DNA of 32,000 nucleotides from Candidatus Heimdallarchaeota archaeon. Lineage in GTDB: Archaea > Asgardarchaeota > Heimdallarchaeia > Heimdallarchaeales > Heimdallarchaeaceae. The stretch lies in contig DAOVER010000026.1 in assembly GCA_030668875.1 (NCBI GenBank), positions 1 to 32,000 of the forward strand, read 5' to 3'. Shown here in pieces: positions 461 to 26,387 of this stretch. The notes under the pieces are model-generated. The model ran no database searches and was not told where the DNA came from. It saw nothing but the letters and a program-made list of their open reading frames with translations. Numbering within the stretch: position 1 is the first letter of the stretch; every line of letters begins with the position of its first letter. Position numbers and translations under genes: made by a program.

Positions 461-1600
461 TCAATCTGATAATCTTATGAAAGTTTTTCTCAATTTTTCT
501 TCTTTTTCAATAATCTCCTTTCTACTATCTCTACCTTTTTCGAGAACTTCCCAGAATCTGTCTACATAGTCTGGATGAATACCTGTCAAAACACCCCTAA
601 TGGTGAGATAGGGTTCATCAATCGTGTTTAAAGCTATCCTAACGTCTCCTCTTTCAAAATTCTTGACTATCTTTCTGGTTTCGAAAGTAGATTGGAATGT
701 TGTAGGTGTTGTTATTGTAAGATATCCTTTTTTGGCTCTAGTTACATCTGCTGTTAAGCTAGAATTCTCATCTAGTTCATTGAAGAATAAATCTGAAAAT
801 CTTACATTTTGAGCTTGTTCAAGAGTATCAAATTCCTTATCCAAAGAGACTATAACTCCTAATCCATTTGCTTCTTTGGTGAATGATAAAAAGAAATCAT
901 TCAGACCTGCATTATACTCTTCATGATCAGTTTCTTGTAAAGCTGCAAGAATGGTTGTAGTCATAGTTATTGCTAACAACTCATTACTTTTTTCTAAAGC
1001 AACTGATGCTTCCTCTTTTTCAAAAAATGATAAAAGTTTCTCATTATCGAATAGTAATATAGGACTTTTAGGACCCTTAAAATCAAATCCTAGGAAATGG
1101 AGAGCTTTTGCAGCATTGTATTGAACTAAGGAAGGTTCACCTCTTTCCGGAACGATAAAAATGTTTGTTGGAGGGTCTCCTGTTATGTCAGCTAGAATCT
1201 TACTGGCTAACATTGATCCAGCACTACCTGTTCCTCCACCACTACCTACAATAAGATGTAGTGCTAGATTATCTTCGTTTCTACGATCGTCTCTTTTGTA
1301 AAAAACTACTTTCTCAAGCTTACCTCTAAATTCCATTTCTCTGGATTTGAGTTCTTTATAAACTGAACTTAAGTCGCTATTTGAAGAAGTTTTATTTTTA
1401 TCAAACCACCAATGCTCTTCATAATTCTTCATTTTTATTTGAAAATTGTCTGATTGATTAATTGCTAGAGATTTTACTGTGAGTCTACTCTCCTTCAAGT
1501 GATGAATAATTCTATCTCCAATTCTACAACCAGCATTTCCTATGCCAATAACAGCAATAGAAATTTTCTTTTTGAATAGCTTTCGTTTTAACCAAGACAT
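461..1600 (-). CDS. Tubulin/FtsZ-superfamily GTPase (CetZ/tubulin-like, not canonical FtsZ)
   Basis: T1 VIGIGNAGCRIGD; T4 GSGGGTGSAG (aa 119-128); T5 IVPERGEP..YNAAKAL; T6 LFDNEKL; T7 YNAGLNDF; C-terminal domain ending IRGVLTGI. N-terminus MSWLKRKLFKKK. Confidence 0.88.
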   Translation of the reverse strand: MSWLKRKLFKKKISIAVIGIGNAGCRIGDRIIHHLKESRLTVKSLAINQSDNFQIKMKNYEEHWWFDKNKTSSNSDLSSVYKELKSREMEFRGKLEKVVFYKRDDRRNEDNLALHLIVGSGGGTGSAGSMLASKILADITGDPPTNIFIVPERGEPSLVQYNAAKALHFLGFDFKGPKSPILLFDNEKLLSFFEKEEASVALEKSNELLAITMTTTILAALQETDHEEYNAGLNDFFLSFTKEANGLGVIVSLDKEFDTLEQAQNVRFSDLFFNELDENSSLTADVTRAKKGYLTITTPTTFQSTFETRKIVKNFERGDVRIALNTIDEPYLTIRGVLTGIHPDYVDRFWEVLEKGRDSRKEIIEKEEKLRKTFIRLSD

Positions 1601-2973
1601 TATGATCCATCTCCTGCAACTGCGGTAAAGATTCTTCTCATATTGAGTACCCAGATAATTATTGCCATAGAACTTTTTAGTAATTTACCAGTTGAAATTG
1701 GTACAGTTCTCATATTTGAAATATAGTTTCTTAACTGGAACATAGTTACATTTTCTTGTTTTGCATTATCAGCGTATTTTAGCTCAAATTCGACAACATT
1801 TGCAAATATATAATTGTCTAATTCGATTAAAGCTTTCATCTTAAATTTTACCATCTTAACTCTGAAACTATTCAGGGGAAGATATACTATCAAGAACATA
1901 ATAGCTGCAAGTAGAACAGATATAATAACAACCATAACGGTCCAAGGTTTATCTGCACCTATACCAGTAAAATCAACTAATATTGGAAACCCTAATCGAG
2001 GCATCTCACTAGCAAAACCATAGATAAGTAGATTAATTGTTCCCATTGCCATCGCTATCGTAGTAATAAGTGCAGAAAGTAAACCTGCAACAGGAATATT
2101 TTCTAATTGGCTTATAGATCTGCCAGGAGTATCTCCCAGAGCCCAGATTATGTCATAATTTTCTCTATTTAGAAGGGTTCCGTATTCATCAAGGTAAATC
2201 ACCAATCTTTCTTTTATCGTTTTTAGAACTTTAGAGTAGATTTTTGTATTGAGTATGAGATAATAGGTTGCAAGATAAAAAATATAGAACATCAATGGAC
2301 TAACTATACATGAGATAATCCCAAATGCTGAAGCAATAGAGGGGTTTGTTCCTGTAGTTTGAGGAATGGTTATTAATAGAATCGGCAGGTTAAGACCTAT
2401 TCCTGATAGAAGAGATAAAATAATCATAATTGGATTCTTTGGTAAATACCTATCATAGTATTTTGCATAATACTCCCGTACTGGTTTTTCTATCCATTCT
2501 ACACGCTTTTCTAGTGTTAAACCTAAATATCCATCGTGTGTGTATTTTAGATAGAATAAGGAAAATAGTACTCCTCCTATTAGCGGTATGAGCACAGAAA
2601 CTGTTAAATCTATCATTATTTTGCTCAGATCAAGTGGGGCTGCAAGCTCTTGGAATGGTACAATAACCATTATAATTGTTGGTATAAATAGCAGTACAAC
2701 GTAAAACCACAGTTTAATGTAATTCCACCACTTCAAAGCTAAAATGGAATTAAGCTTAACTTTGAAGAACGCAATTGGAACTAAGTAGAAATAGAGAAAA
2801 GGATTTTCTAGTGCTTTCAAATAGAGTGGGTTCTCTATCATTGCTGCTGTTCTTGGATACTTCTTATAGTGCTTTATAATTAAATCTTCGAACTCAAAAG
2901 AAGGTACCTCAATATCGTTTGGTTTTATCATTTTTGCTTTTATTGAAGTTGATTTAGAAGAACTAGTTTCCAT
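1600..2973 (-). CDS. Polytopic membrane protein of unknown function (about 7-8 hydrophobic segments)
   Basis: 457-aa ORF with multiple long hydrophobic stretches. Its TAA stop overlaps the ATG of the tubulin-like gene at 1600 (TAATG). Confidence 0.8.
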   Translation of the reverse strand: METSSSKSTSIKAKMIKPNDIEVPSFEFEDLIIKHYKKYPRTAAMIENPLYLKALENPFLYFYLVPIAFFKVKLNSILALKWWNYIKLWFYVVLLFIPTIIMVIVPFQELAAPLDLSKIMIDLTVSVLIPLIGGVLFSLFYLKYTHDGYLGLTLEKRVEWIEKPVREYYAKYYDRYLPKNPIMIILSLLSGIGLNLPILLITIPQTTGTNPSIASAFGIISCIVSPLMFYIFYLATYYLILNTKIYSKVLKTIKERLVIYLDEYGTLLNRENYDIIWALGDTPGRSISQLENIPVAGLLSALITTIAMAMGTINLLIYGFASEMPRLGFPILVDFTGIGADKPWTVMVVIISVLLAAIMFLIVYLPLNSFRVKMVKFKMKALIELDNYIFANVVEFELKYADNAKQENVTMFQLRNYISNMRTVPISTGKLLKSSMAIIIWVLNMRRIFTAVAGDGS

Positions 2974-3056
2974 GGCATTTTCATATACCGTTCGCTTGCT
3001 TTTAACAATTTCGCATTGTTACAAAACAAATTTATGTGAATACAGACTTATTAAAC

Positions 3057-4475
3057 ATGATTCAGTTGAAACTTTCAAAAATAGTCTGTACGATAGGGCC
3101 TTCTTCTAGTGATGAATCAACTCTCAAAGAGATGATTAACGCTGGTATGGATGTAGCTCGGTTGAACTTTTCTCATGGGACTCACCAATCACACGAGGAA
3201 GTGTTCAAGAAAATAAGGAATATCGATTCTCAAATCGCTATAGCATTTGATATAAGCGGCCCAAAAATAAGACTGGGAAAACTAGAAGAGAAATATCTTC
3301 TAGAAAAAGATCAGCAAGTTATACTGACTACAGATGATGTAGTTGGAACTAAAGATTTACTTCCAGTTAACTATCCTTCCTTGATAAAAGAAATTGAACA
3401 AGGATCTTATGTTTATATAAATGATGGTTTTGTGAAACTCAAAGTTATACAGAAAGAGAACAACAATCTAGTTTGTCAAGTCATTGATGGTGGTTATATA
3501 TCCTCTAGAAAAGGTGTTAATGTTCCTGATGCTAATCTTTCGATGAGGGTTCCTACAGAGAAAGATATAGTTGATATCAAAAAAGCATGCGAACTGGGTG
3601 CAGATTATCTGTTTATATCCTTTGTAAGAAGCTCTAATGATCTTGCAAAGGTAAGAAAAATTATTAACAAATGTTCTGATAAAACTATTGGATTAGTTTC
3701 AAAGATTGAGCACAAGGATGCAATAGAAAACATCAACGAAATAATTGCTGCAAGCGATGGTATAATGGTTGCAAGAGGTGATCTGGGAGTTGAAGTAGGC
3801 GCAGCTAAAGTTCCTGTCCTTCAGAAAAAAATAATCAGACTTGCTGTGAATATGGCTAAACCTGTAATTGTTGCTACACAGATGCTAGAATCTATGACTA
3901 AGGAGCCACTACCCACACGTGCTGAAGCGAGTGATGTGGCTCATGCTGTTTTTGACGGAGCTGATGCATTAATGTTATCTGGAGAAACAGCTACTGGGAG
4001 ACATCCTGTTACTGTTGTTAGAACTATGACAGAGATAATTCAAGAGACGGAAAATAATCTCTCCTTTTACACTTCTTTTGTTTCAGAATCGAACCTTCCT
4101 AAAGGAGGAGAAATAGGTCAAGCAGCTGTTAAACTTGGTCAAAAATTAGCTGTTGATGCCTTAGTGGCTATTACCCAGACAGGATACTCAGCAAGGATGA
4201 TATCAAGAAATAGAGTGCCTTTGCCTATTTATGCTGTTACTCCCGATGAATCAACGATGAGAAAGACCAATCTACTATGGGCGGTAAAATCTCTCTATCA
4301 TCCTCATAATGGTGATTTTAATCAGATTATATCCAGCACTATCAAGAAACTCCACTCAGAAAAAAACCTCCAACTCAATAGTGACGTTATAGTTGTTGCT
4401 GGGTCAGTTGTCGGACTTCCAGGAAGAATTAATACAATCCAAGTTCTAAATGTTAAAGAAACAATTGGGAGCTAG
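3057..4475 (+). CDS. pyk: Pyruvate kinase
   Basis: KIVCTIGP, ARLNFSHG, DISGPKIR, SKIE, GIMVARGDLGVE, VATQMLESM, PTRAEASDV, MLSGETATG. ATG at 3057 preferred; an in-frame GTG at 3036 is the alternative start. Confidence 0.98.
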   Translation: MIQLKLSKIVCTIGPSSSDESTLKEMINAGMDVARLNFSHGTHQSHEEVFKKIRNIDSQIAIAFDISGPKIRLGKLEEKYLLEKDQQVILTTDDVVGTKDLLPVNYPSLIKEIEQGSYVYINDGFVKLKVIQKENNNLVCQVIDGGYISSRKGVNVPDANLSMRVPTEKDIVDIKKACELGADYLFISFVRSSNDLAKVRKIINKCSDKTIGLVSKIEHKDAIENINEIIAASDGIMVARGDLGVEVGAAKVPVLQKKIIRLAVNMAKPVIVATQMLESMTKEPLPTRAEASDVAHAVFDGADALMLSGETATGRHPVTVVRTMTEIIQETENNLSFYTSFVSESNLPKGGEIGQAAVKLGQKLAVDALVAITQTGYSARMISRNRVPLPIYAVTPDESTMRKTNLLWAVKSLYHPHNGDFNQIISSTIKKLHSEKNLQLNSDVIVVAGSVVGLPGRINTIQVLNVKETIGS

Positions 4476-4556: not shown

Positions 4557-5870
4557 ATGTCAAAGATAGGTTCGTTATTTAGAAAGAAAAAGCGAAAAGG
4601 AAAGGAAGAACAACCAAGTCTTTTCAACGGATTATATTCCTTTAATAATCAAAATATAGTTATGAACAGTCAAACCTCTGAAGAAATCTTACATGGGAGT
4701 TCAATATCTGATACTTTATTCTTAGAAACCGATACAAAATATTCTTCATCTGGTTTTATATTTGTTGGAAATAAAGAGATAAACCTCCTATCTCAAATGA
4801 AGTCACGTCTAGGAGAGAATTTTCCCCCATCTCTGATTTTTTCAGCTTTAGAAAAATATGAGAGTATAAATGAAAAACTTCCTTTTATTGAAATACCCGA
4901 TAAAAATCTCGAAGATCAAACATTTTCCCAAGGTAACCAATGGTATCTAACTAACAAAGACAGAATCGAAGATCGATTATCACGTTTAATCAGAGATGTT
5001 TCTATAGTATTTATTTTCGTTGAAAATAACGCGTTCTTGCTAGGGCTGATGCAACCTCTTCTCAAATTCTTTGAAAATACAAAAACTCAACCAGTACTTG
5101 TTCTTAACCTACCAGTTGATGAAGCTCCTATAAATAATACAGTAAGTATTTTAGTATTTATTCATCATCTCATGAAGAAGGAAGAAGCATTGAACATACC
5201 TTTCATCCTTCTAGAAGGAAATTTACTGCTAAAAGCAAATCCACATCTGAATTTAAGCGAGTTATCTTCAAAGTTTACTGACAGAGTTGCCAACATCTTC
5301 TGCGATATTATACTTGGAGCATTAACCTCATCAACTTTTTATCAAACAGATTTTAGTAATTTTGTTAGAATATTTGAGAACGCTAGAGGTCCATGTAAAT
5401 TAGTTTCACTAGATATATATGATAATAAACCGAACATATCAAGTCTAATAGGTCAAAAACATCTTTATGATTCAAGTTTTTCAGTGAAGAATAATGCAAC
5501 TAGAGGCTTTCTAGTAATTCAACCAGGTAAGAATGGTCTCAACACTAAAACATATAAAAACTTGAGAGACATTTACGCGAATCTTGATGTGAATATATCC
5601 ATACTTGAAAAGCGTCTTACTGGAGCAATTATAAGAGGAATTTTCACTTTTAATGAATTACCAAAATCTTTACTGAATAGATATGAAGAACTCTCTGAAC
5701 TCTATATTGAAATTCTAGATGATCAAAATAATATTAGTGAATATTTTGACTTAGCAAATCTTGAAGATTTATGGAACAAACAACGATACAGAATCAATAT
5801 TAGAGTAAAAGAAGAAAAAATAAAAGAAGAAAAAATAGAAGAAGAAAAAATAGAAGAAGAAGAAGTGTAA
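4557..5870 (+). CDS. Highly divergent tubulin/FtsZ-fold paralogue lacking the GGGTGS motif (probable pseudo-GTPase), with acidic C-terminal tail
   Basis: Colinear by-eye similarity to 461..1600: IILGAL/TILAAL, YQTDFSNF/YNAGLNDF, KLVSLD/VIVSLD, ATRGFLVI/AKKGYLTI, LDVNISI/GDVRIAL, IIRGIFT/TIRGVLT. T1 reads FVGNKEINL and the T4 position reads FVENNAFLLG. Confidence 0.7.
   Translation: MSKIGSLFRKKKRKGKEEQPSLFNGLYSFNNQNIVMNSQTSEEILHGSSISDTLFLETDTKYSSSGFIFVGNKEINLLSQMKSRLGENFPPSLIFSALEKYESINEKLPFIEIPDKNLEDQTFSQGNQWYLTNKDRIEDRLSRLIRDVSIVFIFVENNAFLLGLMQPLLKFFENTKTQPVLVLNLPVDEAPINNTVSILVFIHHLMKKEEALNIPFILLEGNLLLKANPHLNLSELSSKFTDRVANIFCDIILGALTSSTFYQTDFSNFVRIFENARGPCKLVSLDIYDNKPNISSLIGQKHLYDSSFSVKNNATRGFLVIQPGKNGLNTKTYKNLRDIYANLDVNISILEKRLTGAIIRGIFTFNELPKSLLNRYEELSELYIEILDDQNNISEYFDLANLEDLWNKQRYRINIRVKEEKIKEEKIEEEKIEEEEV
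5808..5867 (+). repeat. 15-bp tandem repeat x4 encoding KEEKI-KEEKI-EEEKI-EEEEV
   Basis: AAAGAAGAAAAAATA x2 (5808-5837), GAAGAAGAAAAAATA (5838-5852), GAAGAAGAAGAAGTG (5853-5867). Confidence 0.9.
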
Positions 5871-6095: not shown

Positions 6096-9000
6096 ATGAA
6101 AGGTAAATTCCGTACTATTATAGGTGCTTTGATTTTAACAATTACTGTAAGCTCATCAGTATCAATGGGTGTTTTGCTCCCTCTTCACTCCTCGAATCTA
6201 ATTACCCAAATTTATGTTGATATGAACAGTAATGCTTGTTTGACAGATAGTGATTTCTTGCCAAATGACGGGGTTGGTAATTTCTCTGAATGGATGTATA
6301 CAGGCTTAGAGACAAATGATTCAAATTTTGTTGATCAAGCAATTTTTGAATTCTTCAATGTTACAGATAGAGAGGGCTATCTCGACTATAATACGCCCAT
6401 ATCGTACTTCTTTGTACAAGGTGAACTAGCTTTTGACATTATTATTAACAAAACAGTTCTAGAGTACAATGTAGAAGATGATTATGTAGTTTATGCTTAT
6501 AGAAAACAATTTCTCTTCAATGAAGAAGACTCAACCTTAACTGGTGATGAGACCGTTTTGAATTTCAATTATCTTTGGCCATATTATATTGAATATTTTG
6601 GAAATGGCACAGAGTATGGTTTTCAAAGCTTTATTGCCTCAAGACTACTTCAAGAAGAATTACTAGGCTTTAATGCATCATTAGGTTATACTTTTAATGA
6701 ATTAGCTTATGCTGTTATGAACAGGACCTACGCTGAAGAAGAAGGCATACTTAATCTTGGCGTTTATTTGCCCCACAATTGGTTAAGTGTAAGACCTGCT
6801 TTTCCAGATCTTAACCTTGATAGCGCAACAAGTTACAAAATACTATATGATGCTACATACAATGGTCATGATTATTCTTTCCTAACAGGAGAAGCTGGTT
6901 CAGCTAAATACTTCCTTGACCTAGTAAGGGGTCTTGAATTTGAAGGACAATATGATTTAATTGTTGATGTTGAACAACTTCTAGCAGATATTTACGGAAT
7001 TGATACTCCACAAGAGCAAGAATACGCAAAATCCTTTGCAGCTTATATGAATTATTTACTTGGAAAGCCTTCACTTGATTGGCTTTATGAAAACAAAATA
7101 TCATATGCTTGTGAGCGAACTGCTATGGAATGGGTGTTAGGTATTGAAGATCCTCTTATGGGTGGAAAAAGATTCCCCTTAGTTTACAACCAAACCTTAT
7201 CAAGTTCAAGCATTGATTGGGATTTAGATATGTATTATGCTGAACAACTTGGGACAAATGATGTAGCTGATGTTGGTAAAATCATAGCAATCGCAAATAT
7301 TCCAGGATATTATTATGCTCAGTCTATGGAACTCTTCGTAGAAGATAACTTTGCATATGTAATAGAAGGTGGGACAGATATTAAAATTGTAAATATGACT
7401 GATCCCTTATTCAAAGCAATCGGTCAATTCGGAGACTTCATTATTGACGATGTTGAACCCAATCCTACTTATGATCCAATTGGTGTAGATGGTTATATTT
7501 CAAATCTTGTTGCAGTTGATTCATTTATTTATGCGGTTGAAGGTGAAGCTGGTTTAGAAATACTCAATGCAACTGATCCAAGTGCTATCTACGAACTTCA
7601 GCAATGGACTAATTTTGGAAATGCTGATATGCGCGATATTGATCACGCAGTTTTCGGGACATCTGTTCCATATGATGCTCTTATAATAGCAAATGGGCAA
7701 TATGGTCTAACCTTTGCAAGATTGCAAACTGATGACAAAATAGTAAGTACAACAATTGTTAATTTTGCAGGATTAAATGGTGATGCAACTTCAGTAGATG
7801 AATACAATGATTATGCTTTTGTAGGTTTAGGAACTGACGGAATTGATGTAGTTAGTATAGATGGTCTCGATGGTTCAATGGCACTTGAACATCACTATGA
7901 TTCAACCGATTTCGCTACCTTTAACAATATTCTAGATGTTAAAGCAGAAAATGGATTTCTATACGTTCTTGATGAAGTTGAGGGATTGTTAATATTTGAT
8001 ATAGAATTTGATGGTGCTTTAACTGAACAAGGTCAATTCGCATTCGGACCTACTGAAACTCCATACATTGATGTTCATATTGAAGGAACAAATGCTTATC
8101 TTACACAAGGAGATTATGGTCTTGTTGTAGTAGATATCTCTAACAAACTCAGTCCTTCTGAAACAGCTAGGTTTGACGGTGCTGAACACAAAGGTATCGC
8201 TTATGGTGTCTATGTTGATGGAAATGATGTTTATCTTTCAGATTATTCTCAAGGATTAGTTCATCTCAATTATGTTTCTAATACTTTCTCAATTGTTAAT
8301 AAAGATCAGTTACACACTTTCGTTGAAGCTTGGCAAAGTGAGAACAATATTCAATTGAATAATTGGGTTCTAAGTGATCCTGAATTCAAAGCTAATGAAA
8401 CATATGATTCATTTGGATTATACACATTTGTTGAAAGGGGTTACAGACAACAATGGACAGAGTATTTCCTTAGACCTTACATCTTCTCCTCATTAACAGA
8501 TACTGCTCTGTTTGTTGATAAAACCGTGTTGGTTTATACAGCTCAAGCTCAGATACCTTATCTCCAAAACGACGAAAACTCCCTATACTGGATGCATGCA
8601 GCCAACTTCATTAATGAAAGTTTCCAACATGCAGGAAGATGGAGTCTTCTTCATGGAGAAGAATTTTTAGCAACTGATTTTGCTATTACTCATTCCTTCC
8701 CTGGTTCGTTAAGAGATGAGTTCCACATGCAATTCATGTTAGTAGAACCTATCACAGGATCTATAATTGAACGCAAAGATAGAGTACAATATAACACAGA
8801 AGCCGTAGATTACAAGGAAACATATGATCTCCTCAATAAGACAACATTTGGATACGAGTGGGAAGTCTTAACGGTAAGCATTTACAATAATTTGCCTGTT
8901 GATCATATTTATAAGACATGGCATGTTACATATCCAGCTTTGCCTGGAGACATGGCAACACTCTTCTGGCATGAAGATATCTATAAAGCTACAAATAATT

Positions 9001-9170
9001 TCTATCATGAAGTAAGAGAAACCTTCTTAGATCTAATTGATAGTGCTGATGCTTTGAGAACATTGGGTGCTTTTGGTTCAATGTTTATAGTTGCTGCCGG
9101 TTTTGTTGTTGCATCTGTTGTGCTTAATATCATGAAGAAGAAGCACGATATTTCACTAATAAAAGAATAG
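6096..9170 (+). CDS. CD36/LIMP-2 (scavenger receptor class B)-like surface protein with an inserted LVIVD-repeat beta-propeller
   Basis: N- and C-terminal TM helices. CD36-like blocks: [20 protein letters not shown]...[53 protein letters not shown]. About seven LVIVD-type repeats (e.g. [22 protein letters not shown]). At least 12 N-x-S/T sequons. Confidence 0.72.
   Translation: [1024 protein letters not shown]
7317..8273 (+). repeat. About seven LVIVD-type repeats (predicted 7-bladed beta-propeller)
   Basis: [143 protein letters not shown]. Confidence 0.85.
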
Positions 9171-9356: not shown

Positions 9357-12300
9357 TTGTCTGATGATAAAAGAGCAAAGAAAATGTCAGCAGCTGCATT
9401 CTTTAATGATAATAAAGCAATAGCTGGCTTTGGAAATTCAATGCGGGCAGTATTTACGAGTATCAGAGAACTTGTAGAAAATGGTTTGGATGCTGCAGAA
9501 ATCAGGGGAGTCAACCCTGTTATTTCAATTTATTTACGCAAACTTTCTAGTAGAGAAATTAATGATTTGCTAGATGTAACCCAATATAAAAAGTTGGAAA
9601 AACATCTTGATTTTCTGCAATTAACCTGTAGAGATAATGGGGTTGGAGTTCCAAGCAATCAAATAGCGGATTTGTTTGGACGAGTATTAACAGGAACTAA
9701 ATATGGTGTAATTCAGACTCGTGGTCGATTTGGCCTCGGAGCAAAAATGTGTTTACTTCACTCTATGTCTTCAGTTGATTTACCAGCACGTATCAAGAGT
9801 CGTTACTTCATGGATGATATGACTCATGAACTTCATCTAATGATAGATCTTGAAAGAAATCAACCTATCGTCATGGAACAAAGAGAATATTTATCTGGAG
9901 ACCCAAATGCGTTAGAAGAACCAGGTGTTGAGATTAGCATAACCTTTACTGGCGCTTGGAGATTAGCAAAGAATAGTGTTAAGGAGTACTTCAGACAATT
10001 AGCCATTATTACTCCTTATGCAAGTTTTGACATAAAAGTTCCTGGAGATAAGGAAGGAGAATTTGAGGAATTACATTATGTGAATGTAGTAGATGATATG
10101 CCTCCTCCCCCCCAGCATATTAAAATTCATCCTTGGGGATGTGATATCACTCAATTCAAAGCAGAATTGTCTTCCACTAAAACTAAAAAAATGAAGGCAT
10201 TTCTTGCTGAACATTTTATGGGAGTAACGAATGAAATTGCTGAAGATTTCTTCCAGTTACTAGAAATAGACCCAAACAAATCACCTTCGAATATAACTTC
10301 GAAGGAAATACGAAGAATAGTACATGAAGGTTTTATTAAAGCTTATCAAGAAGCTAAGGATGTTAAGAGGAAACGAGACAGAATATTCCAATTTGATCCA
10401 CCACGAGGAGATGCCCTTTCTCCATTAGGTGCAGGGAGACTAAGGAAAGGTCTAGAGAAAGAATTGCAACCAAAATTTGTTGAAGCTGTTACAAGACCTC
10501 CTAAAGCTTACTCTGGTCATCCTTTTGCAATTGAAGCAACTATGGGTTATGGTGGGAGTGTAAATGAAGCTGCTCAAGCTAAAGGAGCTACCGTTAATGA
10601 TAATAAGATAATTTACAGGTATGCTAACAGAATACCACTGATTTTTGGAGCAGGAAATGATGTAATTACTCAAGTTGTTTCCTCTATCCGATGGAACGAC
10701 TATGGTCTAACTAGACAGTCTGATCCTCTTGCAATTGCAGTTTCATTAGTTAGTACAAAAATACCTTTCCCTGAAACAAGTAAAGAGTATATTTCTAATG
10801 TTCCTGAAATTGAAGAAGAAATAAGATTAGCTCTGATGCAACTAGGAAGGAGACTCAAAACCTTTTTGAGCAGAGCAAAACGAAGAAAAAGAGAACATGC
10901 AAGGTTATCCAGATTTGTTAAATCAGCACCAGTTATAATTGAAAACCTTACCCAAATTCTTGAAGATGAGAACCTTAAATTCACCGATTTCCGACTAGAA
11001 ACAGATCGAATTTCTGCATCTCTAGCTCATGGTTCTCCAAAGAAAGTTCGCTTGTATATGCCAATTGGAACGCGATTATTCGGAGCAAATGTTTGGTGTC
11101 CAAATAATATTCAAACAGCATTAAAAAATAATAATATTGAGTCAGTTTCAGAATTTCTACTTAAAGATTCAAAAGAATTAGCTGCGTTCCTTCAAATGAC
11201 AAAAGCTCAGATTTACGATATAAAGTTAAGAACTATCTCTGAATTAGACAGAGACAACTTGAGTCCAAGTTTTGATACAAAGACCTTAGTGTCTCGTCTT
11301 GTTGAACGAAGGTTCTCCTCTGAAGGTGAAAGACGGTACATTTCCTTGAAAGATGCATTATACAGACGATGGATACAAAATGTTTACCACTATTTAGCAA
11401 CAGATTTTGATAAACTTCGTGCTGTTTCAGGAATGCTAGAGAAGTTCTTCGAAACTAAGAAAGATGAATTACTTAATGATTACTTAGCTAAAGGAGCTAA
11501 GACAGGTAAAAACACTATATCAACTATAGACAAAGCTATTGCTACTTTCAATACTGTATCAGACTTAAAGAAAGAACAACTCTATCCTCCCTTTAAGTAT
11601 TTAAAATCTGAGACTGACAATGTTCTTGGAGAAGATTTGTCAATAGAAGAATTTCTTTACCAGACTGTACAACCCACATCTATTAACTATCATCCAGAAA
11701 TAACTCGAACGCTTATTGAGTATTTGAAAATTGTATTTACACAAATCACTAATAAATTCCCTGCATTTGCTGCAAGCAATATAACAAGAATGAAACCTGA
11801 TTGGACAGATGGTTATACAAAAAATGCCTTCCATAGAAGAAAGATAAAAACAGTTAATGATTTTCTGAACCACTCTACAGATGATCTTATTGATATAAAA
11901 GAACTGGAAAGAATATTGTATGAACAATACATAGAACTAATTGCTTCAAATTCAAAATCTGTTCCTTTGAAAGATTTCTCTTTTGTTGAAATTCAACAGT
12001 TAAAAGAGGATGAAACTCTTGTTATGAAAGATTTAGCTAAACACGGAATAAAGACTCTTGCTCAGTTCTTAAGCTGTACCTCTGAAAAAATATTACTAAA
12101 GAAGTTTAATACTTTAGGTACTCTTTTACTGAAGGAATCAAAGTTCAAATTATCTGCAAATTTACATGATACTAACAGGATTGTTGATCAATCTCACATC
12201 AAAATTATTCCTGAAAATGTTGAAACAGAATTTGTAAGAAATCAAATATTTACAACTTCTTCTTTTTTGGCGAAATCTTCTGTAATATTAAAGAAAATGG

Positions 12301-15300
12301 GAATGAAGAAGAAAGATATTGAGAGAGCAAAGAAGGAACTTGGTACTCCTTTACAGAATTGGGTCGATCATGATGAAATTCTCAAGAAATGTGGTATAGT
12401 AATCTTAGAAGAATTATTCTTTAATGATTCATCCGAATATAATCTTACACCTGAAGAAAAGAAAAAGTATGATGAAAACATCATTTTCCTCCGTTCTCCA
12501 CTGATTTTTGCTCTACCCGAATTAAGAAGTTCCTCCCATCTTCTTACTGAAATTGGTATTAACAATATTGGACGTTTCCTAATATGGTCTAATTCTGAAC
12601 TCTCAGATATCCTTTATCTATCTGTCAATGAGATAAAAGCTCTGAAGAAGAAAATTGTTTATCAAAAACAAATTCAATCTAGGGATGAACTAGGGAAAGG
12701 CTTAACACTTCTTTCAAGGCACTATCCTAATTTGGTGAAATATTTTGATAAAGAAGCACCATCGATTCAGGATTTATATTATGCTTATCAGTCAGAAAAT
12801 TTCTCGTTTAATACAGGTTTTTGGAAAAAACTATACAAACTGAGTGAACTATCTCAACAAGAAGCTATTGATTTAGTTCATCTTTATCCTAAGAACTTCA
12901 AAGATATTGATACATTAAAAGAAGCACTCCTACGTTTGAAATCAAGGAATGTTGAAACTATACGTCAATTCATGGAATTGCAACCAGAGATAATTGAATC
13001 AAAATTGAGTGTCTCAAAGGAAAGGAAAGTTGCTAGAGCTCTCTATGATACGATCCGATCAAGAAGATTTGAAGGAGAACAAGAATTACACAAACAAATA
13101 CTTCTTCTTAGTGAGTATGATGAATTTCAAAGAAATTTTGGTTCTCCTATTTCTAGGATTCCTGAACTTGCTCTGGAAGAATTAGAGAAATTTCGAAGTC
13201 ACGATATATTAGCTGTTCATCAGATATTCGATCATACAGTAGACGAAATAGCTACTGTGCTTGGTCGTGAAAAAGGATCAGTACAACAATTCATGAGCAG
13301 TTTTACCCTCTTACAGAAAGGAACACCATTCTTTGAAAAAGTAGATAGAAACAAATACAAATCACTAGTTTCATTTGAATTTGAGGATCTTGAACGTTTC
13401 TCTTCAATCGAGATTCAATCCCTTATTCAAGCTGGTTACGCTTCAGTTGACCAGATTTTTTATCTAACCCATCCACTTACTTTTTCCTCTTCCATTCTGA
13501 ACTGGAATGTTGTAGACAAATTTAGAAAATTATTACGATCACCTCTTACATTGGTTACATGGGAGAAAACAGTTAAGACAAAAACTTTTGATGAGACTGA
13601 GAATAAAGAAGTTGAAGTTGAGGACGTTCAAATTTCTACATTAACTACTTTACAATTAAATATTTTACAGAATCAAGGTATTTCAAGAATCATCGACCTT
13701 CTTGTAAGCAAACCAGAAACACTTGCAGAAGCTCTTAGCATCAGTATGGAAGAAGCCAAGATACTCCAGAAAGATATCAGAATTAGTGACACTGGAACTG
13801 ATTTAGCAGAATTGGACATCTTCAAATCAGAAATTGTTGATAAATTAGAGGAAAACAATGTTCTTACTCTTGAGGATTTATACTTCTCAACTTCGAAGAG
13901 CAAATGGAGAGTTAAAGAAGTTCCATGGGATATCATAGAATCATTCAAAAGTATTCTCAACCTTCCTCTTGCACATCTGTCAGATATGTTGGATGAAGAT
14001 ATTCTAACTGCTTTAGAGGATGCTAATGTTAAAACTCTGTTAGGATTTATGCTTACAACTCCTGAAAGTTTAATGAATAAAACAGGTATACCTGATGAAA
14101 GATTTGAAACAATAAAACGCGGTATGGATATTTCTGACATATTCAGTTACTTCTCACTTCCAAGTTATTTCCTCCCAGGTTTAACCTTCCAGCAAACCGA
14201 GATTCTAAAAGAAAATGGTCTTAAATCAGTCGCAGAATTTATAATCAGCTCTCCACAGAAAATTAACAAATTAATCAAAGTGCCTGCTAAGCAATTCCGA
14301 GAAATCACTGCAGATTTAACCACTCAAAGCCTACAAGCTCTGTATGATGAGAAAGGAATCTTTGCTTTTGAGACAAAGCTCTTCGATAAAATGGAACAAC
14401 GACTATTGGGAAGGGATTCAATATTTGAATTTGATAGGTTTCAAACCATCCAAGAAATGTATTATACACTGAATAGAGATTTCTATCAAAATAATCAAGA
14501 CCTATGGGAAAAGGTCTCTGCAATCCAAAAAGTATTATCACTTCCTCTGCACATATTCACCGAAATCTCTGAATATGCTCTTGAAATTATGAGCCAAAAT
14601 GGTATTAATTATGTTTATCAGCTACTCTTTATTCATGATTCAGATATAACTGATCCATTACTATTCAGAACTGTATCAACTTATTCTTCCAAAATAATCG
14701 AAATGAGAGCTTTTCATTACTTTTCCAAGCTTCCTGCTTTTGTTTATAATTCAAACTATTTCAAGAGAATATTGAAGGATACTGTTAACAAATCTCTCTC
14801 AGACGTTATTACTGATGAAAAGGTAATCAAAGATTTAGCTGCAAAAGATAAACAATATTTATACGAAAACTATAACTTAACTATCATTCGTTCAATTCTA
14901 GAACTACCACTTAGAATTACTCCTTACTTTACAAGAATAAAGAAAGTTAGAAGGGATGAATATAAAAATACGAAAATTGGTGATGTTTTCGATATTGATT
15001 TAGAAGAACATTCTGCTCTCTCCTCCTTTTACTCTAGATTATATGAAGAAAACTCTTTCAATAAATTAATCTCGCAATTAACTATCCCAATATCTTCAAT
15101 GGGATTACCCCGTGAACTTGCCTTAAAACTAAGCAAATCATCCATAGGTACATTAATAGATTTTTATTCCACTCCTGAGAAACAAGTTTCTGAAATCACT
15201 GGTTTTTCACAGAAGAACATTCGAGAAATAAAAGATGGATTAACATATTCAAACATTGTTTCTTTCCGAGTATCACAAGCTCATAAAATAAAACCTTCTT

Positions 15301-18300
15301 CCTTTGTATCAGAAAAGCAGATTTTCGACCTTATGGGGAAATCGATATCGGATATAGAATCTCTCTTTTACTCCGCAGAACATTTAGGAATCTCAAAATT
15401 ACTCCCTCTTGAAAATTATAAGAAAATCAAGGAAATTCTATCTGGGTCTATAAGATTTGTAGGATTTCTCTCATTTGATGAAATAAGAAGGTTAGAGTAT
15501 CATAATATTAATTCGATAATTGATTTTGCTCTACTCTCTAAAAAAGATCTCTTTACCATTACACAAAACCCCATTTACAAGGAGTTTCATGTTCTAGATT
15601 TGATTTCCTTTGATGAGTTATCAGAGAAAAGGATTCAAGCTGCTATACCTCTCTCATTGTGCCCCTCGATAGAAGAAGATTACTTAGAGAAAATAAAAGA
15701 AATTGGAATAAACTCCATTCAAGATTTTATCTCAAGAATGACAGAAATTAGAGAATCTCATCCTCATCTAGTAAAATTAGATATCTTCCGAGAAGTACAA
15801 ATGTATCTCTCTTCTGTAGCTTATATTGGACTTAATAATGAAAGTGTCCAGAAACTCATTTACTCAGGTGTTGGCGATATCTTATCTTTCATAACTGAAG
15901 ACCCTTCAACTATATCTCTGATTCTTGGAATAAGTGAAAAACAAGTTGATAAATATGTCAAACTTGCAGTTCCAAGTAATTTGGTTGAGAAAGTAGACAA
16001 CAAAGGTGTTCTTCTTACAGAATTTTCTGGATTATCTAGAGGAAGGAGAAATTCCTTACTAAAATCTGGAAAAGAAACAGTTCAAGATCTATTTAGTTCT
16101 CGTTATCAAGCTTATTCTCAATCTAACATCTCTGATGCGTTGATGAGCGAATTTATTGAAAGCTGTAATATGTCGTTATACAGAATTGAAGAAATTGAAC
16201 CAGGAATTAAGGCTAAGCTTTCAAAGAGTGGAATAACAAGAATTATTGATTTATTCTGCAGTACTGATGCAGGACTAAAGAAAGCTCTTGATGGTAAACT
16301 CCCCAAAGAGTTTAAGCAAATTAGAAAAGGTCATTTCACCTTAACAAAAGGAATTCCGCTAAGTTTGAATGAACCCCTGCAAGATATTATTAGAGAACTT
16401 AATATCGAACCTTCCAACAAAAAGATTGAGGACATGTTTGGTTTTGTACCTGAATTTTTGCTTCAATTTACAGAATCTGAAAGAATTGAGAAGGATAAGA
16501 ATTTAGCATTCCTAGAACAGATAGTAAGTTTCTTGAGTCTTAATATTCTATCATTACCGTCATTTGATACCACCACTAAACTGATTCTTTGGAATCGTGG
16601 TATCCGCCATATAATAGAACTATTATCCACGAATATGAACAAAATTGATGGTATCCCATATCAAGTAATCTCAGAGGTTCGATCTTACCAGAAAAATTTT
16701 AGTTTAAGTAGAAGCATGTCAGAGACATTTTCTCCATATATTGATGATGTACTCAATTTACCTGTTAAAAAGCAAATTAGATTCCAGAATTATGGTCTCA
16801 CTAGTGCTTTATTACTAGTTGATTTCATACCTCATCCCATATTCAGTTTCACTGCAAATGAGCAATCTATTCTCCGGATTATTTCAAATAACATGTTCAA
16901 ACCAATAACCTGGTTATCTTCAGATGTATCATTTAAGATTGAAGACATAAACTTACTAATTCAAAATAGAGCTATAAACATCCTTTCAGCTCTGCTTCTA
17001 TTATCTGATCAAGATGATACTAAAGCACTAGATACTTTATCTAATAAATACTATAAACCGATTTCTGCTTACCTCAATTCATCTGTCTTACAACTTAGTG
17101 CCCCTGAATGGGCTCTACAATTATCTAATACAAAGATAATAACAGATGCTAATAGCCTAAAATTACTAAAGAAAGAGAACATTTCTTATCTTGATGAATT
17201 CCTGACATTAGAAAGCAAGTTTTTGAATAACCCTAATCTTATAACCGATGTTTTACCAAAACTACTTTCACTAAAAAGCCTCCCCATATCCTCCATCAGT
17301 GACCTATCACCCAGTAATATTCAAAAATTAAAACGTTCAAGAATAAACAATGTTTATGAGTTTCTTGTAGTTCCTGCTCCATTGCTTTCAAATCTTCTAT
17401 CAATTTCTGTTGAGAATGTTAACGCAACTAAATCTTCAATTGATCTTTCTTCATTAGAAAAAACAGCAAAACTTACTGGTTTGGACCTAGAACTCTTCCC
17501 AGAACTTTCCCAAGATTCTAGAATAATTCTTCAAAGAAGAGGTTGTGTGTCTCTGAATCAAGCATCGAAGATGGATCTAGATCTCATTCCACTTCTTTCA
17601 GAAGATAAGTTACTTTTACAAAACCTTATCGCTATGTTATTTACTCCCACCACATTAATTGGAAAAATACTTAAATTAACAAAGAATGAAATTGATGAAT
17701 TACTAATTCGTGATGTATGTACATATGTAGACCTCTTAGAGCTTCCTCAAAAAACTTGGCCTGCAAAAATAAGGAAAAGTTTGTCAGATAAGGATTCTGA
17801 TCCAACATATCTAATTAAGAACTTACAAAACCTTGAGAAATTCGGAGTGCCTATAGAAAAGCTAGATTTAGCAAAAAGTGTTACTAAAGCGCTAGTAGAT
17901 GCAGGAATTGTAACAATTGATCATCTATACTATCTACCCATAACCTATGTAAGTGCAAGGAGTAAAGTTAAACAACCCATTCTTGAAGAAATTAAGAAGA
18001 AATTATCCTACAATATAAATTTCCTTCAAGATATCTCACATACAACTTTAGCTGGTTGTTATTCGAAAGATTCTTTTACGATAATTAGTTGCTTGATTTA
18101 CTGGAATAATTTATCTAAGGAAATAAGAACAGATTTGGAAGGTTCTCTAGACAGTATCAAACTAATTGAAGAAACAAGATTTATTGAACCACTGACTCCA
18201 ACGGAAACAAAGCTAGAATCTATTGGTATTCACTCGTTAAGATCATTCATTTTATCCCCACAGATTAAAAAAGAAACAGGTTTAGCAACCAAACTATTAC

Positions 18301-21300
18301 CATCTCTATTAGCTAATATTCGTTTCCTAAGTCTAGATCCAAAGCAGATTTCTCGCTTGAAGAAAACTGGTTTTGTTACAGTGGCAGATTTGCTTCTAAA
18401 TACTTCAAAAACAATATCTGTTAAATCCAAATTAGGTAAGAATGCAATTGATGAAATTCTCAATAACATAAAAATTGATAACTTAACCAGTTTGATTAAA
18501 TCGATGGAACAAGAGCATTTACATGATGCATTTTATCTGAGTACTAATGACAAAACATTCTTGAAATCAATAGGTGTTTATAGTTTAGCAGACTTAAACG
18601 AGTATACTGTTCTTGACTGGTTTGTTTCTAAACAAAAAATCCAAAAAATCAAAAAGAAAATTAACGCTTTGTTAGATACTAATATCCTTTACTATCCAGG
18701 AATTACATCTAAACAATATGCAGAAGTTGTTGAACAATACTTCATGAGGAATATATTTACGATCAAAGATCTAATGATATCAACAACAGTCGAGAAGACA
18801 AGTGATTTGATTGAATTTCTAACCATTTTCTCTACTAACAAACCTAAAATCCAATCCCAATATGTGACCTCTCTTTCATTCTTAAAAGGCATTGAAACCA
18901 AGGATTTGTTCGAGAAAAATGTTAAATTAGAAAAATCTGCAACAATTAATGATCTTATAGTAGCATTATACAGAAATTCTGAGGAATTGACCAAAAAGGG
19001 CGATGATATTATCAAACAGATTAACTACCCAATTTCTTTTTCATCAAAACTTAACCTCAATGAAGCAAATGATTTACGAAGCAAAAACATCCTTTCATAT
19101 GGAGATGTACTTACCAAACCAGTAGGTTATTGGGGGACTTTTGCTTCAGCGAAACTAAAGAAGAAGATTCTTGAAATTCTTAGTACAATTACATCACAAA
19201 ACATTGAAAATGAAGGTAAGAAGAGAGTTCAATTAAGTAGCATGAAAATATTCGATACAAACCTTAAGAAACAGCTTACATCAAATTATAAGACAATTGA
19301 TGAAGTTATTCATGCAATAAAAACAGAAGATACTAAAATCTTAAAACCATTGGAAAGGAAAATCACTAAAGTTTTGTCTACTCCTATCTCTCTTCTCAAA
19401 TTACCAAAAATCAAGATTAAATCATGGAAAAGACTTATATCGACTGTATCTACTTTAGAAGAATTCTACTTATTAACAGATCAAGAATTAGTCAAAATTC
19501 TATCCTCAAGCAAGGAAGAAATTGTTAAATTAAAGATCAATCTCGGGTCTGAAAATATCATCTTACCTCCAAGAATAAAGGAAAATAAGATCTTTACTAG
19601 TTCAGATGTTACAGAACTAAGTGCTAATGGGATTTCAAATTATGTACAGCTTTTTGAAGTGACAATAGAAATTTCTAAACTCAGCACTTCGTTAAAGGAT
19701 AAAATTGCCTTCTACAAGGAGTTTGATGTTAAGCAATTGGACGAGAACATAGAAGAAACCATACTCCTGAAAGATTTTGTATTTCTTGACTTTTATGCAG
19801 ATTCTCTGGCTCTAAGTAGAATACAAAAGGAATCTGTAAAGAATCTTTCCTCCTTGCTCTTGTCTCGTGGAACTCATCTATCAAAGATATTTGATATAGA
19901 TCTATTTGATATAGATCCCAATAAAGACAAAAGTAATCTGCTCAATACAACTATAGAGTATTTCCTCTTGATCGAGAAATATCGACCTAAGGTTTACACA
20001 AAAATTGTTGAATCTTTACAAGAAAAATACTCTTCACAATTAAACACTTTGCTTTCTTATCTTAATAGGTCACCAATTCTCCTTTCAGGACCAAATCTGT
20101 CAAATATTAACAAAATAGTTAAACTTCCTTATGAAAATATAAAGGACTTGCTCTTACTATCCAAGGAGAAACTTATTCGAGAAATAAATGATGTTGCTGT
20201 TCAAAGAAATGTTAGAGGATTGACATTATCTGTTTTGAAAGATCTTGATTCCAAGCTGACTTATATTCCAAAAGAGTTTTTGACAGCTTACGAGATAAAC
20301 CAATTAAAGAAAGAGAATATTTATTCCTTTGAAGAAGCTTTGGTTTTCAATAGAAAGTCAACTAGTAGAAAATCTAAGCCTTGGTTACTATCTGAAAAAG
20401 TAAGAAAAATATCCACTATTAACACGCTCTCACTTTCTTCTTATCTCCCCTCATCTAAAATACAAGAAAGACTACTGAAACTTAAAATAACCAATGTGTA
20501 TGAACTGGTTTATTATTGCCAGAATACAGAAAAAGAAGAAGACTTGAGTCTTTGCCAATCTGTTATTCAATCTGTAAGTTCTATTAATATTGAGGAAATT
20601 GAAACAAAAGAGAGAAGTAGATTTACTAAATTCTTTAATGACCCCGATATTCTTTCTTATTTACGAAGTCAAGATATCAGAACTTTTGGACCTTTAGTAC
20701 ATTATTTAGAACAGTTAGAGGATGAAGCTTTTACCCCTGAAATTGAGAAAATCTTATCCGTTATGCGTTTTCCAGTTTCTGTATTGTCAGATAATAAGAA
20801 ACTTGTGCTAAAACTAGAAGGTGAAGGTTATAACCAAGTAGTTAATCTTCTTATTCCTGCAAAAATAATCAATAGTTTGAAAAGCAATATTACCGAGAAT
20901 CAGAAGAAAGTTCTCACCTCTCTGATTAACATGCTTACTTATCAAGAAATATGTCGAATAATCACAAAAGATCATTATCCGATATCAAAACTTAGTTTAA
21001 TCGATGATATTTTGTTAAAAGAGTTAGTAAAGGCTGGATATGCATCAGTAGCTCATCTCAAATCAGCTGAAACAATTATTGCTGATACTAGCAAACTAAA
21101 TCTACAACAAATTTCTCGTATTGTAAGACTCTTTGATTCGTCTATTTATTACATGTCTGAAATGCTTAAAGACTATCCACAAAGTGCTTTTACTTTGTAC
21201 AATAAAGGAGTTAACACACTATGGGATATTTTCCTAGTTGGAAGTAAGGAAATTTCCAAGATTACAGGTATTTCTGTTCGACAGATAACTTCCTATTTAT

Positions 21301-25796: not shown

Positions 25797-25801
25797 AGAA
25801 T

Positions 25802-26386
25802 ATGAGCTACGGGCAAAAATTATTCCTTAAGGTAATCTTAGCAGGAGAAGCTGAAGTAGGAAAAACAAGTTTAAGACGTTCATATCTTGGAGAAGGATTT
25901 GTCAAAAGTCATCTTCAAACGATAGGTGCAGATTTTGCTTCATTACCAAAAACAGTCAAAGATTATAATGTTCTTTATCAGATTTGGGATGTAGCTGGAC
26001 AAGACATATTCGAAAATGTTCGGATGATGTACTATAAGGGTACCCTTGGTGCGATGATGGTATTTGACGCTACAAAAATTAATACTTTTAGAGCATTGGA
26101 TCGTTGGATAAAAGAGCTTGAGAAAGGTACAGAAAGAGGAATTGTTCCATTCTTCATCCTCGGCAATAAGATGGATTTAGTTACTCCTGCAAAAAAAACC
26201 AAACTAAAAGCAGAAGTCAATAAATACATAGCTGGGTTGAACAAAAAATATTCTGACAAGGGATTTACTGTAGAGTATATTGAAACTTCTGCTAAAACCG
26301 GTGATAATGTCCATTCCGCTTTTGAACAATTAGGAGTCAAGATTATAGATTATATTCAACATCGAAAGAAAATGAGGGGTAAATAG
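25802..26386 (+). CDS. Rab-like small GTPase (Ras superfamily)
   Basis: G1 GEAEVGKTS, G2 QTIG, G3 WDVAGQ, G4 NKMD, G5 ETSAK. RabF-like IGADF, YQIW, YYKG, MVFDAT. No C-terminal Cys. ATG at 25802 preferred; an overlapping GTG at 25793 is the alternative. Confidence 0.93.
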   Translation: MSYGQKLFLKVILAGEAEVGKTSLRRSYLGEGFVKSHLQTIGADFASLPKTVKDYNVLYQIWDVAGQDIFENVRMMYYKGTLGAMMVFDATKINTFRALDRWIKELEKGTERGIVPFFILGNKMDLVTPAKKTKLKAEVNKYIAGLNKKYSDKGFTVEYIETSAKTGDNVHSAFEQLGVKIIDYIQHRKKMRGK

Positions 26387-26387
26387 A

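Follow-up and report, generated by a model that had tools for sequence, protein, structure and literature searches.

Organisation of the P0001 gene

The sequence considered here, referred to below as the window, is a stretch of 32,000 nucleotides from a Candidatus Heimdallarchaeota archaeon (contig DAOVER010000026.1). It carries on its forward strand an open reading frame (ORF), positions 6096-9170, whose product we term P0001; the ORF starts with ATG, has no internal stop codons and codes for 1024 amino acids. An initial annotation, made from the sequence alone, had described the product as a homologue of the CD36/LIMP-2 scavenger receptors with a beta-propeller inserted in the ectodomain. 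The analysis below leaves us in little doubt that P0001 is a CD36/LIMP-2-type protein bearing an inserted propeller; the identity first proposed therefore stands, although the protein falls below the Pfam cut-off for CD36 and is far more divergent than had been implied. The features of the gene and its upstream neighbours are collected in Table 1.

Table 1. Features of the P0001 gene and of the genes upstream of it (positions in the window; residue numbers are those of P0001)
Feature	Position	Strand	Description or basis
Whole gene	6096-9170	+	1024-residue two-anchor surface protein P0001; divergent CD36-superfamily member with inserted propeller
N-terminal hydrophobic anchor (residues 7-30), after 6-residue tail	6114-6185	+	Hydropathy; HHalign, query 7-194 to template 21-193
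N-terminal barrel strands (31-160), including FEFFNVT strand with invariant sequon N88	6186-6575	+	Alignments; N-flank model
Expanded helical apex (~161-335)	6576-7100	+	DSSP; regional identity; ESM Atlas match over 299 of 372 residues
Post-apex segment (336-402): 15-residue motif (341-355) and strand entering propeller	7101-7301	+	HHalign, query 316-397 to template 467-548; LIMP-2 alignment
Seven-bladed LVIVD beta-propeller (403-740)	7302-8315	+	Pfam LVIVD; AlphaFold2; VIA-align; junction mapping
C-terminal barrel half (741-965)	8316-8990	+	HHalign, query 743-1010, 83%; PF01130 match; co-fold with N flank
EPxTG block within C-terminal barrel half (877-900)	8724-8795	+	Source of the Pfam CD36 match
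Stalk helix and C-terminal hydrophobic anchor (966-1014), then ~10-residue tail	8991-9137	+	Hydropathy; AlphaFold2
Tubulin/FtsZ-family gene	461-1600	-	Gene order upstream of P0001
Polytopic membrane protein with several hydrophobic segments, no Pfam match	1600-2973	-	Hydropathy
Pyruvate kinase	3036-4475	+	Gene order upstream of P0001
Soluble 437-residue ORF with Glu/Lys-rich tail	4557-5870	+	Directly upstream of P0001

When a 19-residue Kyte-Doolittle threshold was applied, only two hydrophobic stretches of P0001 passed, residues 7-30 and 986-1015 (core approximately 990-1014), with tails of 6 residues at the N-terminus and about 10 at the C-terminus, and the two-terminal-anchor topology that had been suggested is therefore borne out. 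The anchors align by HHalign with those of canonical CD36-family members, the N-terminal one with the N-terminal transmembrane (TM) segment of the canonical Asgard proteins described below, and P0001 thus has the two anchors, short tails and single ectodomain of the family. We infer that the short tails lie inside the cell and the large ectodomain outside.

The ectodomain is also rich in potential N-glycosylation sites, as had been remarked before: P0001 contains 13 sequons against 7.5 expected from its composition, and the mean for the P0001 family is 14.6 against 7.7, about twice the expected number, with N88, N170 and N365 kept in all 24 orthologues. The three motifs quoted initially as parallels to the CD36 family lie at residues 84-91 (FEFFNVTD), 341-355 (the 15-residue motif) and 877-900 (HMQFML..VQYN), and each holds residues that are invariant across the 24 orthologues. 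Cysteines are few, between one and three per protein, and only C339 is invariant. Mean pairwise identity within the family is highest in the apex (67%), compared with 50-58% in the barrel halves and 46.5% in the propeller. A search of NCBIfam with P0001 gave no family. Two non-significant matches appeared in HMMER searches of PDB sequences, a recurring one between apex helices (residues ~237-279, nucleotides 6804-6932) and the Vps4 MIT domain (E 0.09-0.7), which is probably due to chance, and one to HIV gp41 (E 0.17); we treat both as chance.

About seven LVIVD repeats had been noted in the middle of the ectodomain, and these were confirmed. P0001 matches Pfam LVIVD (PF08309), a repeat type known from surface proteins of archaea and bacteria, with E 2.6e-7 and 30.3 bits (cut-off 20.2), and 23 of the 24 orthologues match as well. 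It can be seen in the AlphaFold2 model built on the family alignment that residues ~404-741 form 28 strands, making up seven four-stranded blades, for the most part with a predicted local confidence (pLDDT) of 83-93. Compared with seven-bladed propellers this region scores a Z of about 29 in VIA-align, and Foldseek gave a like result. A search of the source genome for a donor of the propeller returned partial LVIVD-type matches only, with 29-42% identity.

Relationship of the flanks to the CD36/LIMP-2 family

To provide a comparison set we searched 399 genomes of the same phylum (Asgard) with the Pfam CD36 profile, PF01130. Proteins above the cut-off, here called canonical, were found in 28 of the 399 genomes, scoring up to 238 bits in six-frame translation and 175-330 bits on the extracted ORFs. 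They come from Heimdall-, Hod-, Prometh- (Loki), Hermod- and Odinarchaeota metagenome-assembled genomes (MAGs), some of them on contigs of 100-500 kb, and with canonical members in several Asgard lineages the family is not confined to eukaryotes, so that the initial description of the gene as a eukaryotic-signature candidate needs correction. The canonical proteins are 600-1650 residues long, and their PF01130 match is always split (profile parts ~3-180 and ~140-460) by a large insertion without Pfam match, located in the LIMP-2 chain of 4q4f between positions 114 and 119. From the sequence alignment we read this site as the apex, which is also where lineage-specific expansions have been described in eukaryotes (PMC10715195). 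Their kinship with the animal receptors is plain: in phmmer a canonical Asgard protein matches human LIMP-2 with E 1.1e-41 and human CD36 with E 2.2e-32, and the canonical profile matches a LIMP-2-like protein of Artemia with 229 bits. A library search with this profile gave 7077 cluster representatives at E <= 0.001, among which the best nameable eukaryotic matches were mostly from Amoebozoa, and a word-based search with it gave four proteins only. The wider lineage scan used Asgard-specific peptide patterns, and its all-Asgard outcome says nothing about bacteria or other archaea.

The link between P0001 and these proteins is visible to profile methods only, since phmmer with the single P0001 sequence found nothing among the canonical Asgard ORFs. 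A hidden Markov model (HMM) of the P0001 family matched a 607-residue canonical protein of a sister family with 29.8 bits in three collinear pieces, and HHalign of the full family profile with the canonical profile likewise gave three collinear blocks (7-194 to 21-193, 316-397 to 467-548, and 743-1010 to 556-768, the last at 83%). When the columns of the propeller (residues 403-740) were cut out, a single end-to-end match to canonical Asgard CD36 was obtained, with a probability of 96.6%, E 5.6e-10 and a score of 88.7, whereas one reversed and five block-shuffled control profiles scored 16-29 with a probability of at most 1.9%. The propeller-less profile matched the canonical subset of the same order (Heimdall) at 96.9% and the Loki-type subset at 88%. 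All three motif parallels lie within the collinear blocks, the same blocks align the canonical Asgard protein with human LIMP-2, and by way of the canonical protein the FFNVT sequon of P0001 is aligned with the FYFFNVT sequon of LIMP-2; judged against the control scores, the parallels go beyond chance. PF01130 is matched at E <= 1 in 14 of the 24 orthologues (best E 1.6e-6), and the N-terminal part of one orthologue matches profile positions 56-148. A word-based search for shorter relatives without a propeller yielded nothing beyond fragments of the P0001 family and a single LVIVD protein.

A further suggestion was that the EPxTG block resembles the prokaryotic PorA/DUF3068 proteins (PF11271). 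For the P0001 family this likeness was not recovered: P0001 gave no match up to E 10, nor did any of the 24 orthologues up to E 1. For the canonical Asgard proteins it holds weakly, with matches of at most 32.5 bits in the same C-terminal region, set against up to 330 bits for CD36. The nearest relatives of P0001 are Asgard proteins that match PF01130, a profile built on eukaryotic sequences, and a grouping with a distant prokaryotic family was not seen. In an ESM Atlas feature search the C flank reached PorA and CD36 clusters at 0.88, under the 0.9 line, and we treat these as leads only.

Searches with the full-length model by Foldseek and VIA-align returned propellers only, the propeller domain filling the lists, and therefore the N flank (residues 31-402) was folded separately, from sequences of the P0001 family with no canonical CD36 rows in the alignment (pLDDT 70). 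With this model 11 of the top 12 rows of a Foldseek search of the PDB were LIMP-2 or CD36 (best E 0.018, probability 0.99, 120 columns). Out of 48,161 representative chains compared by VIA-align only two reached a Z of at least 5, LIMP-2 (4f7b, Z 7.4, rmsd 4.0, 181 residues aligned, residues 37-234) and CD36 (5lgd, Z 7.2, rmsd 4.1, 187 aligned, residues 35-233), the next chain having a Z of 3.7. Superposition on these two proteins had been set beforehand as a test of the proposed homology, and it can be seen that the N flank superposes on both. In the ESM Atlas the top match was an 869-residue archaeal cluster, 94% of whose members carry PF01130, with a TM-score of 0.58 over 299 of 372 residues, all others being at 0.27 or below; the enlarged helical apex is thus a feature that the canonical archaeal members have as well.

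The two flanks were also predicted as a complex, which scored 0.79 compared with 0.00 for the best of three controls, a mark to which 58 out of 80 solved complexes come up, as do 2 out of 110 mismatched pairs. At least 75% of the contacts recur between runs, the pLDDT of the partner is at least 63, and the first strand of the barrel pairs with the last. As structures of the CD36 family have been solved, this pass may in part be due to their resemblance; it favours a single domain made up of both flanks without demonstrating it. Taken with the HHalign matches and the N-flank structural matches, the co-fold bears out the view that the flanks are homologous to CD36/LIMP-2 and that the propeller has been inserted into the ectodomain.

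The point of insertion could be mapped from both kinds of alignment. According to HHalign the last strand of the N flank (residues ~395-401) leads to canonical positions 546-548 and the sequence from residue 743 onward resumes at canonical position 556, so that the canonical positions flanking the junction are 7 residues apart, and they align with the IVEW-NGKT-SLDWW hairpin turn of LIMP-2. The structural alignment of the N flank stops at residue 234 of LIMP-2 and residue 233 of CD36, in agreement with the junction mapping. Because the junction alignments and the structural end point agree, we conclude that the propeller replaces the hairpin turn at LIMP-2 residues ~229-236 and does not sit in the apex. 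None of the large canonical proteins that were checked has an insertion at this hairpin, and the nesting of a propeller in a side hairpin of the CD36 barrel is a design that has not been reported for the family.

Several observations weigh against the identification of P0001 as a CD36-type protein. P0001 itself matches PF01130 with 20.8 bits (E 1.5e-4, residues 857-908 to profile positions 346-398), under the gathering score of 26.5, and it is for this reason that we describe it as a superfamily relative and not as a Pfam-defined member; among the profile searches that had been called for, LVIVD was thus positive, PF01130 sub-threshold and DUF3068 negative. HMMER searches of PDB sequences with P0001 and with the full-family, N-flank and C-flank profiles found no CD36-family chain. 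Conserved ectodomain disulfides of the eukaryotic type were not found in the P0001 family. The Foldseek E-values of the N flank are all above 0.001 and a Z of 7.4 falls in the 'middling' range of VIA-align, while in the full-length model the N flank is of moderate quality, residues 740-850 have a pLDDT of 22-50 and the C flank is poor. The comparison with solved structures covers the N flank; for the C half the asymmetric beta-barrel fold of the family is suggested by the predicted co-fold with the N flank. With regard to the disulfides, canonical proteins of the Heimdall order hold no or one cysteine, compared with 5-8 in Loki-type members, and disulfides are therefore not universal in archaeal members.

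A potential explanation that would not need to invoke homology is that P0001 is an unrelated surface protein with two anchors, in which short motifs happen to look like those of CD36, and the sub-threshold Pfam match of only 52 residues and the empty HMMER searches of PDB sequences speak for it. The end-to-end collinear alignment at 96.6-96.9% with clean shuffled controls, the independent structure search in which the N flank gave LIMP-2 and CD36 only, the topology common to both and the predicted co-folding of the flanks all argue in the other direction, and we disfavour this explanation as extremely improbable.

Distribution, phylogeny and gene neighbourhood

The closest homologues of P0001 are in Candidatus Heimdallarchaeaceae. 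Searched for with the N-flank profile, the P0001 type is present in 27 of the 30 Heimdallarchaeaceae genomes, as a single copy, in all five genera and in both single-contig genomes, and it is present in none of the 369 other Asgard genomes. Canonical PF01130 proteins above the cut-off show the converse pattern, with none in the 30 Heimdallarchaeaceae genomes and representatives in the sister families f2 (1 of 1), f3 (2 of 3), f4 (4 of 12) and f6 (1 of 2) as well as in family f20 (20 of 135). The two types are thus complementary across Asgard genomes, as would be expected if a fast-evolving gene had taken the place of the canonical one in this lineage. The sequencing runs listed as holding this DNA are marine-sediment metagenomes, possibly the source samples, and no RNA run is listed among them.

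The phylogeny that had been proposed as a check was calculated, and it gives a long branch but no firm position. The P0001 family attaches between the eukaryotic and the canonical Asgard proteins by a branch that is about 3.6 changes per column long, and approximately unbiased (AU) tests reject neither a grouping of the P0001 family with the Heimdall canonical proteins (p 0.387) nor monophyly of all Asgard proteins (p 0.233). The tree is compatible with either a fast-evolving orthologue or an old paralogue.

Further observations were made on the canonical proteins and on CD36-domain proteins more widely. Canonical proteins from the same order as the source organism (loci L014-L018; P0053, P0056, P0059 and P0061) have Pfam-less apex insertions of ~270 to more than 900 residues and reach lengths of up to 1648 residues. 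Some Promethearchaeota (Loki-type) genomes carry two canonical CD36 genes on one contig, a few kb to ~17 kb apart (L034 and L046 on SHMU01000004.1; G263:C33; G273:C4), which suggests local duplication. Several proteins of 940-1100 residues from the library search, among them P0084, P0091 and P0136, the last from the spider Parasteatoda, contain two complete CD36 domains in tandem (PF01130 ~780 bits).

The neighbours of P0001 in the window are archaeal and include genes for Topo VI A and B, Alba, a Ras-family GTPase and a tubulin/FtsZ-family protein. The order tubulin-like gene, polytopic membrane protein, (pyruvate kinase), ORF 4557-5870, P0001, Top6B recurs in three genera (g1, g2 and g5), with or without the kinase, and the g4 locus keeps ORF 4557-5870, P0001 and Top6B. 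In each of the eight loci with a readable flank, P0001 is immediately preceded on its own strand by ORF 4557-5870. This conservation, and the several hydrophobic segments of the product of ORF 1600-2973, could be accounted for if the neighbouring products, namely a tubulin-like GTPase, a degenerate tubulin-like protein and a polytopic membrane protein, made up a conserved module in which P0001 faces outward and which couples recognition at the surface to membrane-linked filaments. However, the functionally unrelated Top6B is an equally conserved neighbour, so that the order may be plain synteny among close relatives; 225 nucleotides separate P0001 from the upstream gene; cytoplasmic tails of about 6 and 10 residues offer little for filament binding; and the canonical CD36 loci of other Asgard genomes are without such neighbours in the flanks that were read. 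We consider such a module very unlikely.

Other features of the window may be mentioned. The ORF at 9357-21986 (+), of 4209 residues, begins with a Topo VI B subunit (transducer at residues 349-515); the thousands of residues beyond it give RAD51D_N-like and HhH-type matches, and Topo VI A follows directly after it at 21983-23392. A short ORF at the window edge (11-352, +) contains a Cas12f1/TnpB TNB domain (E 2.6e-11) and, on this match, probably represents the end of a TnpB-like gene associated with a transposon. At 25793-28742 (+) a Ras-family small GTPase of 197 residues is directly followed by a 784-residue HEAT-repeat protein, a pairing of eukaryote-like genes that is typical of Asgard archaea.

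Possible function and comparison with known systems

If the relationship to the CD36 family is taken as the starting point, P0001 would be a surface glycoprotein that crosses the membrane twice, its two short tails lying within the cell and about 960 residues outside. The ectodomain would be a barrel of the CD36/LIMP-2 type, highly diverged and formed by the N flank (residues ~31-402) together with the C flank (~741-965), bearing an enlarged helical apex (~161-335) and a propeller (~403-740) looped out of a hairpin turn, and P0001 would represent the Heimdallarchaeaceae-specific form of an archaeal CD36 family with canonical members in sister lineages. By analogy with CD36, SR-B1, LIMP-2 and the actinobacterial LmcA/PgfA, the conserved apex may be the primary site for binding lipids or other hydrophobic ligands, which P0001 might carry to or from the membrane, exchanging them with the outside or the cell envelope, with the propeller as a second, added docking surface. 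That P0001 is a diverged CD36-type two-pass receptor with a propeller, proposed to handle lipids or other hydrophobic ligands, is the account that we favour, and on balance we think it rather probable. The handling of lipids, taken by itself, is proposed tentatively and is perhaps slightly the less likely outcome. What the analysis shows is the architecture, the homology, the fold of the N half and the distribution among genomes, whereas a tunnel, a ligand and a direction of transport are suggested by analogy with the characterised relatives. A point on the other side is that the very long branch of the P0001 family means that the function may have shifted.

The main rival to this proposal is that the CD36-type barrel serves as a mere scaffold, and that P0001 is an adhesin or receptor re-purposed for a protein, glycan or particle (for example an S-layer, a partner cell or a virus), which it would engage through the propeller and the apex with no transport of lipid. 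The extremely fast divergence from canonical CD36, apparent from both the branch length and the score to PF01130, is in keeping with this, as are the gain of a propeller whose repeat type is that of cell-surface proteins, the fact that the P0001 type stands in place of the canonical form in Heimdallarchaeaceae and not beside it, and the role of eukaryotic CD36 members as recognition receptors in their own right (PMC10715195). Against it, the blocks of the barrel that define the family have been kept, some of their residues being invariant in 24 orthologues; it is the apex and not the propeller that is the most conserved part (67% against 46.5% identity); and all characterised relatives handle hydrophobic ligands. 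We therefore prefer a receptor for hydrophobic ligands to a re-purposed adhesin, which we regard as unlikely but as deserving serious consideration.

A much bolder scenario combines several of these elements: an ancestral archaeal CD36-type lipid receptor would have been rebuilt in Heimdallarchaeaceae as a two-site receptor (apex and propeller) that works with the neighbouring tubulin-like/membrane module in recognition and uptake, a forerunner of the role of CD36 in eukaryotic engulfment, and archaeal CD36 would be the source of the class B scavenger receptor (SR-B) family of the last eukaryotic common ancestor. We judge this to be highly improbable as a whole, and put it forward as speculation. 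A close archaeal relative of eukaryotes bears a recognisable, if strongly remodelled, CD36 member while sister Asgard lineages bear canonical ones, so that the origin of a eukaryotic receptor for lipid uptake and recognition becomes directly testable in archaea. In these sediment archaea P0001 is also a candidate agent of lipid handling or of contact with partners.

Full-text literature searches found no paper on the CD36 family in archaea. CD36, SR-B1 and LIMP-2 handle hydrophobic ligands through a tunnel that runs from the apex to the membrane (PMC10715195). The survey of Boohar et al. (2023), the only broad one that was found, which covered eukaryotes only and does not mention prokaryotes, traced the SR-B/CD36 family to the last eukaryotic common ancestor and described lineage-specific expansions of the apex (PMC10715195). 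The human receptors LIMP-2/SCARB2, CD36 and SR-B1 (PF01130; 4f7b, 4q4f, 5lgd) have the same hairpin topology as P0001, with short tails and an ectodomain that can be heavily glycosylated; P0001 superposes on LIMP-2 and CD36 in the N half of the barrel, and the FFNVT sequon and the EPxTG block align with theirs transitively. They differ from P0001 in that identity over the aligned structure is only ~18%, in having conserved disulfides, which P0001 is without, in having a three-helix bundle as apex where P0001 has ~175 residues, and in lacking the 338-residue propeller at the hairpin near LIMP-2 residues 229-236. Eukaryotic SR-Bs with apex expansions (Dictyostelium LmpA, and oomycete and ciliate proteins) share with P0001 an extra helical apex between the barrel halves and two TM segments, but their expansions are reported at the apex only, and no folded beta-propeller elsewhere in the barrel is described for them (PMC10715195).

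In prokaryotes a functional parallel is seen with the PorA/DUF3068 proteins (LmcA; PgfA/MSMEG_0317; PF11271), which are said to be restricted to actinobacteria, to act in the trafficking of envelope lipids and to show limited structural homology with CD36 (PMC9678360); they differ from the P0001 family in that no member of it matches PF11271 at E <= 1. The canonical Asgard CD36 proteins (for example P0044 and P0045, annotated as 'hypothetical protein', from Heimdallarchaeota and Kariarchaeaceae MAGs; loci L005-L018 and L022-L048) share with P0001 two terminal anchors, an expanded helical apex and a collinear series of blocks made up of the FxxxN-x-T strand, the RT..EW motif, the TG..D(I/V)..V strand and the EPxTG..R.Q(I/Y)N block, and those of the Heimdall order are nearly free of cysteine, as is the P0001 family. 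They are set apart by PF01130 scores of 175-330 bits, compared with 20.8 bits for P0001, by having no propeller and a sole large insertion, of 270 to ~900 residues, at the apex, and by their absence from Heimdallarchaeaceae. Lastly, P0001 has in common with LVIVD proteins (PF08309) a seven-bladed LVIVD propeller, and other LVIVD-type propellers are found in the same genome; its own propeller differs in being neither free-standing nor terminal but nested in a loop of another domain, from which it can be seen that a complete folded domain can be accommodated within a side hairpin of the CD36 barrel.

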